40,164 nt of DNA from Chiloscyllium plagiosum (Eukaryota), in assembly GCF_004010195.1 (NCBI RefSeq), contig NC_057751.1:16678724-16718887 (forward strand), read 5' to 3'. The position numbers were made by a program, and so were the translations under genes. Shown piece after piece: positions 10,161 to 35,907 of this stretch. Positions within the stretch are counted from its first letter, which is position 1; every line of letters starts with the position of its first letter. The notes below the pieces were generated by a model that saw only the letters and a list, made by a program, of their open reading frames with translations, did not search any database and was not told the DNA's origin.

Positions 10161-10416
10161 GCTCACCGATTAAGGACTGCAGTCATAGCCGAGATGAGAC
10201 AGCCATGATGAGTTGCTAGATACTAGGCCAGAAGCCTCTGTTGAAGACGACCAACATGCTGCGCCAAGACCGCCACCCTTCGATGAGACCAGCTGCCGGG
10301 TCGCTGGAATACTTGGATACCGAAGAAGACCTCTGCACTGGGTCGAGACCACCAAGCCGGGAGACTGCCATACTGGGCCAAGGCCACTTTTCTCCTCCTT
10401 CAAGTGGCTGGGCCTA

Positions 10417-11215
10417 GCCTGCAGACCTGGAGCCTTGGCCTAGTTAGGGACCTGGAGTCTCGGCCTAGATGGGGACCTGGAGCATCAGCTTAGCCTGCGA
10501 ACCTGGAGCCTCAGCCTAGCCGTGGACCTGGAGCCTCAGCCCAGCCTGTAAGTCTGGAGCCTCGGCCTAGCCTGGGGACATGGAGCCTCAGCCCAGCCTG
10601 TAAGTCTGGAGCTTTGGCCTAGCCTGGGGACATGGAGCCTCAGCCCAGCCTGTAAGTCTGGAGCCTCGGCCTAGCCTGGGGACATGGGGCCTCAGCCTAG
10701 CCTGTAAGTCTGGAGCCTCAGCCTAGCTGAGGATCTGCAGCCTCAGCCTAGCCTGTAAGTCTGGAGCCTCGGCCTAGCCTGGGGACATGGGGCCTCAGCC
10801 CAGCCTCTAAGTCTGGAGCTTTGGCCTAGCTGGGGACCTGCAGCCTCAGCCTAGCCTGTAAGTCTGGAGCCTCGGCCTAGCCTGGGGACATGGAGCCTCA
10901 GCCCAGCCTGTAAGTCTAGAGTCTCGGCCTAGCTGAGGATCTGCAGCCTCAGCCTAGCCTGCAGACCTGGAGCCTCGGCCTAGCTTGTGGATCTGCTGCC
11001 TTGGCATAGCCAGCAGACCTGGAGCCTCGGCCGAGTTCTGTACAGTGTCGGTCTAGCTTGGGACCTGGACCCTCGGCCAATCTTACGGACCTGAAGCCTC
11101 GGCCTAGCCTACGTAGCTGGAATCTCAGCCTAGCTAGGGACCTAGAGCCTCGGCCTAGGCTGGAGATCTGGAACCTCGGCCTAGGCTGGGGAACCTGGAG
11201 CCTCGGCCTAGCCTG
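10417..11215. repeat. Minisatellite, ~26-bp unit, about 30 copies
   Basis: Alternating GGAGCCTCAGCCCAGCCTGTAAGTCT and GGAGCCTCGGCCTAGCCTGGGGACAT units. Confidence 0.95.
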
Positions 11216-11639
11216 CGGGTGTGGGCCAGGGGCTTCAGCCCGGGGCCTGTTCCTAGCTCGCCAGGAGACCCCAGGCTGGGATGGCGTTGCCACCAGCCTC
11301 TCCTTTACCCACCAGCCTCCAGGTTTAAAAGAAAGAGAAAGGGAAAAAAAACAAGAAGGAGAACAAAAGTGAAAAGAAGAAAACAAAGAGAAAGAAAGCC
11401 AACGTGCCCGGGGCTCAGCCTTTCTACTTCACCGCCATCTTGAAAAATGCAGCGCTCCGTAATTTACAGAGTAGAAATGAGAGCTCTACTGCACCCCAGT
11501 GTGTTGTCAGGTTGGATCTATTGACTTTGGATCCCTACAATGCATTAAGTGGCCATTTGGGTCATTGAGTTTGCACCAAAGAGCATTCCACCCAGATCTA
11601 CCCTACCTCTGTAACGCTGCATATCCCCTGGCCAACCTA

Positions 11640-12954: not shown

Positions 12955-13369
12955 TAGATTAGATTTTTTAGATTCCCTACAGTGTAGAAAGAGGCCCAAC
13001 CAGTCCACACCGACCCTCTGAAGAGTAACCCACCGAGACCCATTCCTCTCTGACTAATGCACCTCACACTATGGGTAATTTAGCACGGCCAATCCACCCG
13101 AACCTGCACATCCCTGAGCACTATGGGTAATTTAGCACGGCCAATCCACCCCAAACTGCACATCCCTGAGCACTATGGGTAATTTAACATGGCCAATCCA
13201 CCCTAACCTGCACATCTTTGGACTGTGGGAGGAAACTGGAACACCCGGAGGAAACCCACACAGACACTGGGAGAATGTGCAAACTCCACGCACAGCCAAT
13301 CGCCCGAGGCTGGAATCGAACCTGGGACCCTGGTGCTGTGAGGCAGCAGTGCTAACCACTGAGCCACCA
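12955..13369 (-). mobile_element. HE1-type SINE (3 internal 52-bp units) inserted into CR1
   Basis: Head near 13369 and (AATCT)n tail at 12955. A second SINE tail follows at 13374-13460 and CR1 resumes near 13462. Confidence 0.9.
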
Positions 13370-16623: not shown

Positions 16624-16656
16624 TCTGGTACAGTATTACTGATACCCCACGCCCAT

Positions 16657-17270
16657 GGAATGGAAGGGAACGGAATGGAATAGAATGGAATAGAATGGAA
16701 TGGAATAAAATGGAAAGGAATAGAATAAAATGGAATAGAATAGAATGGAATAGAATGGAATGGAATGGAATAGAATGGAATGGAATGGAATAAAATGGAA
16801 AGGAATAGAATAAAATGGAATGGAATAGAATGGAATGGAATGGAATGGAATAGAATGGAATGGAATGGAATGGAATGGAATAGAATGGAATGGAATGGAA
16901 TAGAACGGAATGGAATAGAATGGAATAGAATGGAATGGAATAGAATGGAATAGAATTGAATAGAATAGAACGAAATGGAATGGAATAGAATGGAATGGAA
17001 AGGAATGGAATGGAATGGAATGGAATGGAATAGAATGGAATAGAATGGAATGGAAAGGAATGGAATGGAATGGAATGGAATGGAATGGAATAGTATGGAA
17101 TAGAATGGAATAAAATGGAATGGAATAGAACGGAACGGAATGGAATGCAATAGAATGGAATGGAATAGAATAGAATGGAATAGAATGGAATGGAATGGAA
17201 TGGAATGGCATAGAATGGAATGGAATGGAATGGAGTGGAATAGAATGGAATGGAATGGAATAGAATAGAA
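16657..17270. repeat. (GGAAT/AGAAT)n pentamer array, ~610 bp
   Basis: Seen directly. Confidence 0.98.
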
Positions 17271-24289: not shown

Positions 24290-24532
24290 CTATATATATA
24301 TATATAAAGGGGGAGGGCAGGGAGACTTTGCGACTCGAGCTCTGTGGATCTGATGTGACTGTGTGGCCTATTCTCTCTGACAGAGAGTGTGGGGACGTGG
24401 GTGCACTGCAGCCATGAAGCGAGAGAGAGAGGACAGACTGAAACTGACGGGTGAGTGTTTGGGCTGAGACTGACGGGGGTGAATGTGTGTTTGTTGAGGG
24501 AGGGGGGGGGGTGGGAACTACAAAACCCCAGC
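24290..24532 (+). promoter_or_regulatory. Putative GGCX promoter region
   Basis: (TA)n ending in TATATAAAG at about 24301-24309, roughly 105 nt before the ATG. GGGAACTACAAAACCCCAGC at 24513-24532 resembles the ZNF143/THAP11 ACTACAnnTCCCAG motif. Confidence 0.4.
24414..24450 (+). CDS. GGCX: Probable GGCX coding exon 1 (MKREREDRLKLT + phase-1 G)
   Basis: GCAGCC-ATG start context and a consensus donor G|GTGAGT at 24451. The phase-1 end matches the phase-1 start of exon 2, 1.7 kb downstream. The peptide is not conserved, so the call rests on position and phase. Confidence 0.7.
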
Positions 24533-25695: not shown

Positions 25696-26106
25696 GGGGT
25701 GGCACGGTGGCTCAGTGGTTAGTACTGCTGCCTCACAGCGCTAGGGACCTAGGTTCGATTCCAGTCTCGGGCGACTGTCTGTGTAGAATTTGCATATTCT
25801 CCCTGTGTTTGTGTGGGTTTGCTCCGGTTTCCTCCCACAATCCAAAGATGTGCAGGTTAGGGTGGATTGGCCATGCTAAGTTACCCATAGTGCTCAGGGA
25901 TGTGCAGGTTAGGGTGGATTGGCCGTGCTAAATTACCCATAGTGTTCAGGGATGTGCAGGTTAGGGTGGATTGGCTATGCTAAATTGCCCATAATATTAG
26001 GTGCATTAGTCAGAGGGAAATGGGTTGTGGTGGGTTACTCTTCGGAGGGTCGGTGTGGACTGGTTGGACCGAAGGGTCTATTTCCACACTGTAGGGAATC
26101 TAATCT
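25696..26106 (+). mobile_element. HE1-type SINE (3 internal 52-bp units), ending ~77 nt before GGCX exon 2
   Basis: GGCACGGTGGCTCAGTGG...GGTTCGATTCC head and GGGAATCTAATCT tail. Confidence 0.92.
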
Positions 26107-26183
26107 TAAAAACATGAAAATGAATTATGTTTTCTTTCTTGGGGGGTGGTGTTGGGTTGGGGTTTGTGAAGACTCATCATTAG

Positions 26184-26369
26184 GTTCCCATCCTCCGAAT
26201 GTGCCTGAGAGGAGTGTCCCGCAGGACGAAGGGGTGGAGGGGCGGGTCAGCAGAACGAAGAGGATCTTTGGGTTCGAGCTGTCGGATTTCCGAAACTGGC
26301 GTCGATTTGTTAGCCTTCTGAACCGGCCCACGGACCCGGCCTGTCTCGGCGTCTTCAGGTTTCTCTTCG
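26184..26369 (+). CDS. GGCX: GGCX exon 2
   Basis: Encodes ...[36 protein letters not shown](G), matching human [36 protein letters not shown]. Donor G|GTGAGT at 26370. The acceptor cattag|GT is the likely one; tgaag at 26171 is an in-phase alternative. Confidence 0.95.
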
Positions 26370-26689
26370 GTGAGTACGGCCCCACCCTCGTTCTCTTCAA
26401 ACGTCGACGCGCTCAGCGGCTGAAGTGTCGCCTCTCGGGCCACCTGTCCCAGTGAGAGGTCGGAGCACAAGGCTGCTACCCCAATGCAGTCCTGAGAGAG
26501 CCGCAGGTCCTGTTGTGAAGTCCGGCTGGGAATAGCGTAAGCAATCCACAGGCGATTTGAGGGACGGGATTGGTGAGTGGGCCAAAATGTGGCCGATGGA
26601 ATGTAATGTGAAGTGACTGGAAGAACAGAGGAGCTGAATATCGTTTTTTTTTCCTGGTGGGGTCAGGCTGCAGAGAGCTTTCGAGGAGT

Positions 26690-27620
26690 TGGAATGGAAA
26701 TTTATTGTCGTGTGTACTTCCATGTGGAAAGTTGCCCCCACCACAGTTCCAACATCAATGACAGAAATCGTGCCTGATGATGTTTAACAAAAGTAAAATT
26801 AAGTCAAATTTCATGACAGTTCAGGGAATGGTTTGAGGAAAGTCGAGTTAGGAACGATGTAGCTGGGCTGAGACCACCATTCCGGGCCATCGGATTCTAG
26901 GCCTGGATGTAGGTTTGCCCTATTAGGTAATCTCTTCAGTGGGCCTCAGGCGAAGCACTGCTCATAATCCCCGCTTTCTATTTATATGTTTGGGTTGGTG
27001 ATGTCATTTCCTGTGGTGATGTTATTTCCTGTTATGAGGCCACTTGCTGGTTTTTTTCAGGGGGTGGTAGATGGGGTCGAATTCGATGTGTTTGTTAATA
27101 GAATTCCAGTTGGAATGCCATGCTTCTAGGAATTCTTGTGCGTGTCTGTTTGGCTTGTCCATGGCTGGATGTGTTGTCCCAGTCGAAGTGGTGTCCCTCC
27201 TTATCTGTATGTAAGGATACAAGTGAGAGAGGGTTATGCTGTTTTGTGGCTAGGCCGGAAGCTTCCGCCAGCGAAGAATGCCACACCAGGCCGAGACCAT
27301 CTTTCTCTTCGTTCAGGCGCCTCGGCCTGGCCTGTGGGTGTGGAGCCTCGGCCTAGCCTGAGAATCCAGGCCGGGGGAGTCAGGCCACGATCTGCTCCTC
27401 GCTCGCCGGCTGGGAGAACCCGGGCTGGAGTAGAGCCATGTCTGGTTCATCCCGGCGTTGCTGCCAACAGAGATCTCCACCTTCACCCGCCACTCTCTAA
27501 GGCTTCATAGAAAAGAAAACAAAGGGAGAAAAAGAGCAAAAGTAAAAAAAAGGAGGGAAAAAGAAAGAGAAAGAAAGGTGACGAGCCTTAGATTCAGCTT
27601 CCTACTCTGCCGCCATCTTG
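26690..27620 (-). mobile_element. Composite retroposon, copy B (about 2 VNTR units), interrupted by Penelope
   Basis: Head CAAGATGGCGGCAGAGTAGGAAG; tail GTACACACGACAATAAATTTCCATTCC. Confidence 0.65.
26904..27249 (-). mobile_element. Penelope-like element 3' fragment (GIY-YIG C-terminus)
   Basis: SLVSLHTDKEGHHFDWDNTS...QAKQ / EFLEAWHSNWNSINKHIEFDPIY. Flanked by CTAGGCC at 26897-26903 and 27250-27256. Confidence 0.85.
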
Positions 27621-28071: not shown

Positions 28072-29640
28072 AGAGTCATACACCACAAAAACAGACCCTT
28101 CGGCCCAACTAGTCCGTGCCAACCATATTCCCAAACTGAACCAGACACACCTGCCTGTGCTTGGCCTATATTCTGTCAAACCTTTCCCTATTCACATACT
28201 TTTTCAAATGTCTGTACCTGCATCCATCACTTCCTCTGGATGTCCATTCCACGCTCTGTGTTTTTTAAAAAAAATTTGCCCCTCATGTCCTTTTTTTTTA
28301 AAAATATCTTTCCCCTCTCACTTTAAAAATATTCCCCCTAGTCTTGAACTCTCCCACCCTAGGGAAAAGAGCTTTGCCAGTCACCTTATCCATGCTCCCT
28401 CATGATTTTATAAACCTCTATAAGATCACCCCTCAGCCTCCGACACTCCAGTGATAAAAGTCCCAGCTTCTCGTAATAACTCAAACCCTCCATTAGCATC
28501 CAGCTAAATCTTTTCAGAACCCTCTCCAGTTTAATAATATCCTTCCTATATAACAGGGTGACCAGAACTGGGCACAGTGCACCAGAAGAGGTCTCACCAA
28601 TGTCCTGTACAACCCCAACGTGACGTCTCAAATCTTGTACTCCCAAGATGTGAGCCATGAAGGCAAGCGTACCAAATATCTCCCTCTCCACCTGATCAGA
28701 TTAGATTCTCTACGGTGTGGAAACAGGCCCTTTGGCCCAACCAGTCCACACCAACCCTCTGAAGAGTAACCCACCCAGACCCATTTCCCTCTGGCTAATG
28801 CACCTAACACTATGGGCAATTTAGCACAGCCAATCCACCCTAACCTGAACATCCCTGAGCACTATGGGTAATTTAGCATGGCCAATCCACCCTAACCTGC
28901 ACATCCCTGAGCACTATGGGTAATTTAGCATGGCCAATCCACCCTAACCTGCACATCCCTGAGCACTATGGGTAATTTAGCATGGCCAATCCACCCTAAC
29001 CTGCACATCTTTGGATTGTGGGAGGAAACTGGAGCACCTGGAGGAAACCCACGCAGACACGGGGAGAATGTGCAAACTCCACACAGATGGTCGCCCGAGG
29101 CTGGAATCGAACCTGAGACGCTGGTGCTGTGAGGCAGCAGTGCTAACCACAGAGCCACCGTGCCGCCCCATATGCAAATTTCAAAGAATTATGTACCTGA
29201 ACCCCTAGGTCTCTCTGTTCTACCCAGGGCCTTCCCATTACTTGTATAGGTCTTGTCTTTGTTACCTTTTGCCAAAATGCAATATCCAAATTAAACGCCA
29301 TCTGCCCGTTGACCAAGATCTCTTTGCAATCTCAGATAGCCTGTCCACTATACCACCAATTTTGGTGTCATTCACAAATGTACAAACTGTGTTTATGTAA
29401 ATGACCAGCAAGAGAGGACCCAGCACCAATCCCTGTGGAACACCGCTGGTCACAGGCCTCCAGTCTGAAAAACAATCCTCCACCACCAACCACCACTACC
29501 CTCTGTCCCCTACTGTCAGGCCAAGTTTGCATCCTATTGGCCAGCCCACCCTGAATCCCACGTGATCCAACATTTTAACTGATTGGTTTACCCATGCAGA
29601 ACCTCATTGAAGACTTTGCGCAAGTCCATGGAAACAATAT
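28072..29640 (-). mobile_element. CR1 fragment split by an HE1 SINE
   Basis: SDWRPVTSGVPQGLVLGPLL on the 5' side and RRLRGDLIEVYK on the 3' side. Confidence 0.88.
28698..29168 (-). mobile_element. HE1-type SINE (4 internal 52-bp units)
   Basis: Units start near 28809, 28861, 28913 and 28965. Confidence 0.92.
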
Positions 29641-34205: not shown

Positions 34206-34577
34206 ATCCCGAGGAATTTCCGGGAAGGCCCGATCTTTCCAAAACGGAAGAATTTCATCCGTTCTCTTTGGTATCCCAAAGCGTTTCCTGGCGTGGTTTG
34301 GCTGAGGGGAGGGGAGTGTTTGATGCAAAAGACTATGTCATGCACCTCCCCTCCCACTACCACCTCCCGAGTGGTCACTCTTCAAGTGTGCACCACCAGT
34401 GCGGGCAGTTCAGCTGCGGGGGGGGACTCACAAAACAGTCCGTCGCTGATTGAGAAATGTTTTTATTTTGTTGTTGGAGAGGGTGCTGTTTCAAAGAGGC
34501 GTCGCAGGAACGTCTGAATCTGCGATTTAAAAAAAAAAGTTTTCCTCTCCAAAGCCTCTGTGTTGTTCCTCCTGCAG

Positions 34578-34736
34578 GTTTTCTGATGGCCCTGGATATC
34601 CCCCAGGAGCGAGGCCTGAGCTCGTTGGATTTCAGGTACTTTGACGGACTGGTGGTCTGTCGCTTCCCATTGTTCAACTCCCTGGACCCGCTCCCTTTGG
34701 ATTGGATGTATGTCGTCTTTGTGGTTATGTGGCTGG
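34578..34736 (+). CDS. GGCX: GGCX exon 3 (159 nt)
   Basis: Acceptor cctcctgcag| and donor G|GTAAGT. Encodes [53 protein letters not shown], including the conserved CRFP cysteine. Phase 1-1. Confidence 0.97.
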
Positions 34737-35166
34737 GTAAGTCCCCGTCTCCCTCTCTCTCTCTCGCCCTCTTTTTTTTTTTTCTCTAGGGAGCATTCCC
34801 CCACCCCTCACCCACCACCCGACGAGGCTCAAGGGGAGACATCGCCAGGGACAGTGTAGAGAGGGAGAGTTGTCGCCGTTACGGAAGGGGGTCAGGTATG
34901 AGAGGCTGTGGATGGAAGGCAAGCGGGGGGTGGGGGGGGGGTGGGCTTAAGGGTTTGAGGTACCCTGCCCCTGACCACAGGCACATTGGAGTGCAGCTGT
35001 GGCCCCCTACAAGATTGGGGGGACCGGCTGAAGGTGAAAGGGTCACACAAGCTCACTGGGAGCGGGCAGGGGTCGGGGGAAACGGGATGGGCGTTAGTGT
35101 CTCTCTGAGAGCTGGGCCGGATATGATGGGTCTCGTTCAGGGCTGTGTGTGTCCATAATAATGGAG

Positions 35167-35690
35167 TTTTCTCTCTGCCTCTCTCTGTTTCATTGTGTCT
35201 CTCTGCCTCTCTGCCTTCCTGTCTCTCTCTGTCTCTCTGTCTCTCTGTCTCTCTGTCTCTCTGTCTCTCTGTCTCTCTGTCTCTCTGTCTCTCTGTCTCT
35301 CTGTCTCTCTGTCTCTCTGTCTCTCTGTCTCTCTGTCTCTCTGTCTCTCTGTCTCTCTGTCTCTCTGTCTCTCTGTCTCTCTGTCTCTCTGTCTCTCTGT
35401 CTCTCTGTCTCTCTGTCTCTCTGTCTCTCTGTCTCTCTGTCTCTCTGTCTCTCTGTCTCTCTGTCTCTCTGTCTCTCTGTCTCTCTGTCTCTCTGTCTCT
35501 CTGTCTCTCTGTCTCTCTGTCTCTCTGTCTCTCTGTCTCTCTGTCTCTCTGTCTCTCTGTCTCTCTGTCTCTCTGTCTCTCTGTCTCTCTGTCTCTCTGT
35601 CTCTCTGTCTCTCTGTCTCTCTGTCTCTCTGTCTCTCTGTCTCTCTGTCTCTCTGTCTCTCTGTCTCTCTGTCTCTCTGTCTCTCTGTCT

Positions 35691-35731
<41 letters not shown>
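35167..35731 (+). repeat. (CTCTCTGT)n plus (CT)n microsatellite forming the pyrimidine tract of GGCX intron 3
   Basis: About 59 perfect 8-mers from 35221 to 35690, then (CT)n up to the acceptor. Confidence 0.98.
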
Positions 35732-35735
<4 letters not shown>

Positions 35736-35741
35736 TTGCAG

Positions 35742-35907
35742 GGGCCCTGGGCATTATGCTGGGCTGTTTCTACCGGCTGTCGTGCCTTATGTTCCTCATC
35801 CCCTACTGGTACAATTTCTTCCTCGATAAGACGGCCTGGAACAACCACTCCTACCTGTACGGCCTCATTGGCTTCCAGCTCACCCTGATGGACGCCAACC
35901 GATACTG
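35742..35907 (+). CDS. GGCX: GGCX exon 4 (166 nt)
   Basis: Acceptor tctttgcag| and donor TG|GTAAGG. Encodes [55 protein letters not shown] with the HTTM-domain WNNHSYL motif. Confidence 0.97.

Follow-up and report, generated by a model that had tools for sequence, protein, structure and literature searches.

An adenosine-free microsatellite before exon 4 of GGCX in Chiloscyllium plagiosum and its candidate distant branch points

Background

The branch point of an intron is usually an adenosine lying some 18 to 40 nt upstream of the acceptor AG. In the genome assembly of Chiloscyllium plagiosum, the intron that precedes exon 4 of GGCX ends in several hundred nucleotides of CT-rich repeat devoid of adenosine, which raises the question of where the branch point of this intron lies. 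We addressed it in a window, i.e. the whole stretch of DNA that was analysed, of 40,164 nt (contig NC_057751.1, positions 16,678,724 to 16,718,887), and all coordinates below are positions on the forward strand of that window.

Exons served by distant branch points constitute a known class. The branch site of PTB has been verified at -351 and that of Fugu PTB is predicted at -566, AG-free zones of up to 1126 nt are known, and zones of at least 150 nt precede 165 of 67,334 human exons (Gooding 2006, PMC1431707). The branch site and its pyrimidine tract occupy the 5' end of the zone, AGs less than 12-15 nt past the branch being bypassed (PMC1431707), and some sites are predicted upstream of the bounding AG, at distances of up to 7-8 nt (Corvelo 2010, PMC2991248). 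Nearly all of the long-zone exons that were mapped had distant sites (PMC2991248), and in the HTR4 exons the tracts extend over almost the entire zone (PMC1431707, PMC2991248). In the portions of the distant-branch-point literature consulted, verified branch distances reach ~400 nt. Branches at bases other than adenosine have also been mapped, so that the two possible mechanisms at an acceptor of this kind, a distant A or a proximal U, are each already known from precedents. Literature listings included no published work in which the branch was mapped at an A-free acceptor created by a microsatellite and, in a search dominated by papers on subjects other than GGCX, none on GGCX intron 3.

Results

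The GGCX gene and the use of the exon 4 acceptor

Exon 3 (34578..34736, 159 nt) and exon 4 (35742..35907, 166 nt), which spliced contigs join, encode positions 18-69 and 70-123 of the Pfam domain HTTM (PF05090) in unbroken succession. The 54-residue peptide of exon 4 shares 100% identity with the GGCX protein of Hemiscyllium ocellatum and 98% with that of Cetorhinus. Exons 1 to 4 were all located inside the window by tblastn, exon 1 weakly: its coding part, from the ATG to a GTGAGT donor, lies at approximately 24415..24451 (residues 1-19 of P0003, 63% identity, E 0.15), and exon 2 lies at 26172..26370, with an approximate 5' edge and a 3' end that is joined to exon 3 in contigs of three sequencing runs (X2, X10 and X15). 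The domain, the Hemiscyllium match and the tblastn results agree with the identity and number that the initial annotation had assigned to exon 4. This exon ends at the donor TG/GTAAGG and, since 166 leaves a remainder of 1 when divided by 3, its skipping would shift the reading frame, as had been anticipated. The exon 1 peptide is also the start of P0003, a GGCX isoform of Hemiscyllium in which it is directly joined to exon 3 sequence, i.e. an annotated form that skips exon 2. Upstream of exon 2, the segment 26120-26172 is rich in G and T and lacks a clear pyrimidine tract, the acceptor of that exon being approximate.

Intron 3 (34737..35741, 1005 nt, GT-AG, phase 1) is defined by the junction 34736/35742, found in 3/3 contig runs. 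Four of 24 candidate sequencing runs, none of the 24 being recorded as RNA and their word share being at most 0.47, were aligned over the interval 34400-35222, with the repeat array and the acceptor outside it; they comprise the contig runs X2 and X10 (organism A) and X15 (organism B), and X21, a raw single-cell run. In each contig run one high-depth contig (depth 187, 173 and 1168) spans exon 3 with zero mismatches, and its loose ends are the end of exon 2 upstream and the initial 30 nt of exon 4 downstream. Exon 3 is therefore joined to exon 4 at the predicted acceptor in all three, in agreement with the proposed use of that acceptor. These contigs extend unbranched for 244, 1704 and 207 nt, and neither exon 4 skipping nor an alternative exon 3 junction was present among the matches listed for the three contig runs, a type of data in which rare forms are lost and a skipped product could be concealed by NMD. 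Lariat reads or joints were absent among the matches listed for the four runs, a weak test given just 11 raw reads on the stretch, namely those of X21, in which exon 3 has a depth of 1-2.

An intron piece of 151 nt from organism B shows no substitution with respect to the window, and the organism A pieces are ~2-3% different. The apparent variants 'A35192>T' and 'G35195>C' were rejected because the pieces that show them are 35-40 nt long, carry 4-5 mismatches and have unrelated loose ends, made of CT repeats that belong to other places. Record 15 of X2 (35008-35169, depth 3.8), which covers A35161, was likewise discarded as evidence of conservation because two of its three differences could not be placed. 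Close to the other end of the intron, a further A-free CT/T tract (34741-34789) ends in TAG only 53 nt past the exon 3 donor; one organism B piece reads through this tract unspliced, and a donor-like CAG/GTATGA is found at 34896.

An interval without adenosine and without AG

Between A35192 and A35740, the A of the acceptor, the assembly sequence holds 547 nt composed of 0 A, 209 C, 65 G and 273 T, i.e. positions -3 to -549 of intron 3 are free of A and the usual branch window of -18 to -40 contains none. The final AG upstream of the acceptor is found at 35165..35166, leaving a zone of 573 nt (35167-35739) without AG, with a pyrimidine content of 88%. Both absences had been described in the initial annotation and were confirmed by the base count of the assembly, as was the yUnAy context of A35192 (TTCAT). 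The 547-nt run is far above the local background, the next-longest A-free run in the rest of the window, N gaps excluded, being 47 nt. Because it consists of one repeat, and hence of a single event, it cannot count as independent support for selection against A or AG.

The tract is composed of a degenerate 5' portion of 57 nt (35167..35223), a perfect (TCTCTCTG)n array with an assembly length of 471 nt and 58.9 copies (35224..35694), and a final 47 nt comprising a (TC)18T run, GTCTTTG and the CAG acceptor (35695..35741). The period-8 array, which is 100% pure, makes up 471 of the 547 A-free nt, the (TC)18T run accounts for 37 nt, and ~39 nt of other sequence remain. Set against the zone length of at least 150 nt by which distant-branch-point exons are recognized, the AG-free zone measures 573 nt in the assembly and ~100 nt without the 8-mer array.

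Candidate distant branch sites

Two candidate branch sites with an adjoining pyrimidine tract are present at the 5' end of the zone. They were ranked by a simple count of pairs with the U2 hexamer rather than by a trained predictor. A35161, in TAATA[A]T (35156..35162), lies 580 nt before the last base of the intron; its putative 5/6 pairs are the highest count among the 20 intron adenosines listed, and the following 30 nt are 80% pyrimidine. A35192, in GTTTC[A]T (35187..35193), lies 549 nt before the last base and may form 3/6 pairs. Judged from these contexts, A35161 appears to be no weaker a candidate than A35192. The final AG before the acceptor follows A35161 by 5 nt, close enough to be bypassed under the rules cited above. 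The proposal of a distant branch at A35192 thus stands as regards the lack of any A at -18 to -40, but its weak U2 pairing makes A35161 the better candidate.

Removal of the array and of the TC run brings A35192 to ~-40, a normal branch position, consistent with slippage having lengthened an acceptor that was originally normal. We consider that there is about an even chance that a lineage-specific CT-type microsatellite grew within the polypyrimidine tract of intron 3 and left a distant branch point behind it (candidate A35161, else A35192). Such an expansion would have left no A near the exon 4 acceptor; U2AF would bind the tract where it begins with U-rich sequence, U2 would pair at TAATA[A]T with branching at A35161, or else at A35192, the AG 5 nt past A35161 would be too close for use, and the spliceosome would then reach the first usable AG, that of exon 4, across the AG-free repeat.

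Other ways of bringing branch and acceptor together were tried and rejected. A hairpin bridging the distance was discarded given that the array is unpaired in both predicted folds, as was pairing between the repeats at the two ends of intron 3, both of which are pyrimidine-rich. Recursive splicing at the AG of 35165-66 was rejected as well, the next letters being TTTT and not GT. A weak AU/GU hairpin predicted between 35154-35166 and 35183-35197 takes in both candidate adenosines and the bounding AG and was given no weight; likewise, the fold z-score of -3.84, to which a single small hairpin at the 5' edge gives rise, deserves little weight.

Orthologous acceptors

A metagenome scan yielded 19 loci, of which 17 were kept after dropping two (L018 and L019) that start within the exon. 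An AG occupies the same phase-1 position in 15 of the 17, down to 64% identity, the remaining two (L004 and L010) having no intron there. All 15 other-animal loci with the intron, 14 of them distant (64-72%) and several near-duplicates, carry an A no more than 20 nt from the end of the intron. In the sole vertebrate-like locus, L001, whose exon is 91% identical, the AG-free zone is 20 nt. A long A-free zone was thus absent from 15/15 loci examined, a sample with one vertebrate-like member and no close shark intron end. The position of the intron is ancient and the long A-free tract is not common to the loci examined, judging from these sequences; the conventional acceptors of all 15 fit a local expansion, the comparison being thin.

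Discussion

The distance separating the candidate branch sites from exon 4 depends on how far the assembly can be trusted. Three N gaps (497, 346 and 500 nt) split the window into pieces of 5.6, 14.4, 15.9 and 2.9 kb, a gap and piece pattern (3-16 kb pieces) that suggests a short-read scaffold, the assembly method being deduced from this pattern alone. De Bruijn assembly resolves repeats only if they are shorter than k, and short reads are below 250 nt (Torresen 2019, PMC6868369). Since repeats of at least k are left unresolved in such graphs, a pure 471-nt array would correspond to a walk through the graph, and its length and purity would be estimates. The array could accordingly be an assembly product, in which the local assembler walked a repeat loop where the true tract is shorter or interrupted, the interruption holding an ordinary or moderately distant branch A. 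In favour of this, the exact tandem match within the array is 463 nt, compared with 109 nt (period 52) for the longest elsewhere in the window; the other arrays of the window are 60-97% pure, barring one 25-nt GA run; and the size of the array is near that of the N gaps. Young microsatellites can nevertheless combine a pure core with degenerate edges, which is the form of this array. Moreover, reads can connect the first 57 and last 47 nt of the tract with the unique flanks that anchor them, which makes an ordinary A at -18 to -40 unlikely in any case, and deleting every copy of the 8-mer still leaves A35192 at 78 nt and A35161 at 109 nt from the intron end. We regard an assembly product as rather unlikely, while recognizing that the array could hide an A, which would count against a distant branch. 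The suggestion that microsatellite expansion had moved the branch by ~550 nt is consistent with the return of A35192 to ~-40 once the repeats are removed, but the figure itself is weakened by its dependence on a pure array within a gapped scaffold: the branch-acceptor distance would be roughly 550-580 nt with a correct assembly, and would come down to roughly 80-200 nt were the array much shorter. Should the array prove to be a gap-fill product, it would caution against trusting long zones without A or AG in gapped assemblies unless reads support them.

The branch could instead lie near the acceptor at a base other than A, the likeliest being the U of CTCTG[U]C (e.g. 35688, at -54) or else one of the U residues of the TC run. 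The usual window has no suitable A, and a U2-pairing context surrounds a U: CTCTGTC, with 4/6 putative U2 pairs, occurs 59 times in the zone, its nearest copies, alike in sequence to known U branches, placing the T at 35688 (-54) and 35733 (-9). Table 2 of Gao 2008 (PMC2367711) includes CTCTGTT (-22) and TGCTCTC (-36) in GH1 intron 1 and TACTGTC (-23) in CALCA intron 3, so that the GGCX unit is one base apart from the GH1 site CTCTG[T]T as tabulated there and has the CTG[T]C core in common with CALCA, all three acceptors being CU-rich. Branches, C branches included, are expected 10-60 nt from the acceptor, those more than 60 nt out amounting to 8%, and the contribution of distal sites was only modest when a proximal one was also present (Taggart 2017, PMC5378181). 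Against these parallels, the GH1 and CALCA branches, which were mapped in vitro, lie between -22 and -36, whereas the similar GGCX sites, recognized by sequence alone, fall at -54 or -9, and -10 to -53 holds only the plain TC run. A U branch also requires the least used nucleotide, with 2.8% U versus 92.3% A among 181 mapped clones (PMC2367711), when good adenosines with an adjoining tract are present upstream. A proximal U is, in our judgement, an unlikely solution.

The preferred reading, a distant adenosine left behind by a grown microsatellite, would make exon 4 behave like a distant-branch-point exon, as a candidate member of the class, the conservation that supports such membership being absent from the orthologues examined. 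It resembles PTB exon 11, GABBR1 exon 23, HTR4 exons 3-5 and Fugu PTB exon 11 in its long AG-free zone with a candidate site and tract at the 5' end; as in HTR4, the tract fills almost the entire zone, and the distance is similar to the -566 predicted for Fugu PTB. It differs from distant-branch-point exons in that its zone is a simple repeat with no A at all and is not conserved among the orthologues examined, that no skipping was seen, and that its branch sites are candidates. The 369-nt zone that Gooding attributed to a repeat retained a normal candidate at -17, and the GGCX zone has none.

The initial annotation had further suggested that repeat length might tune GGCX expression. One form of this idea is that PTBP1 coats the CU array and represses exon 4 in some cells, the frameshifted product being degraded, so that the length of the repeat sets the level of GGCX. 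CFTR (TG)mTn is a repeat-length-tuned acceptor. So is PMEL in merle dogs, in which poly(T) length tunes splicing, and both repeats are, like that of GGCX, slippage-prone and situated between branch site and acceptor (PMC7349775 for PMEL). PTBP1 tolerates interspersed G in pyrimidine tracts (PMC3907290), skipping affects 43% of distant-branch-point exons versus 28.6% (PMC2991248), and NMD long masked the skipping of PTB exon 11 (PMC1431707), a precedent of interest for an exon whose skipping would cause a frameshift. Merle PMEL, however, requires a competing cryptic AG (PMC7349775), which the GGCX tract does not have, and for GGCX neither length variation of the repeat nor altered splicing was observed. 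With only exon 3-exon 4 junctions among the matches listed for the contig runs and a zone of just 20 nt in the vertebrate-like orthologue, tuning by repeat length was not supported by the loci and runs examined, and we consider a PTBP1-controlled switch highly improbable. A stronger version, in which the array is real, pure and polymorphic, the branch of a core GGCX exon is pushed ~580 nt, beyond the distances mapped in the literature consulted, and allele lengths shift the balance between distant A and proximal U, setting GGCX output via PTBP1 and NMD, is also very doubtful. We read the layout as a tolerated by-product rather than a regulatory switch. A real array would imply that distant branch points can arise neutrally through slippage, and would offer, in a tract without A whose exon is still included, a clean way to measure the distance that the spliceosome will span to find an A before it accepts a U.

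Other repeats were observed in the window. A degenerate (ATGGA)n array of 616 nt with 84% matches occupies 16655-17270, and a minisatellite with nested periods of 26, 52 and 103 lies at 10411-11216, a similar motif being present near 27320-27370. In addition, a 52-bp tandem unit occurs in ~3-4 copies within each of three SINE-like repeat copies, at 13067-13216, 25847-25993 and 28808-29009.
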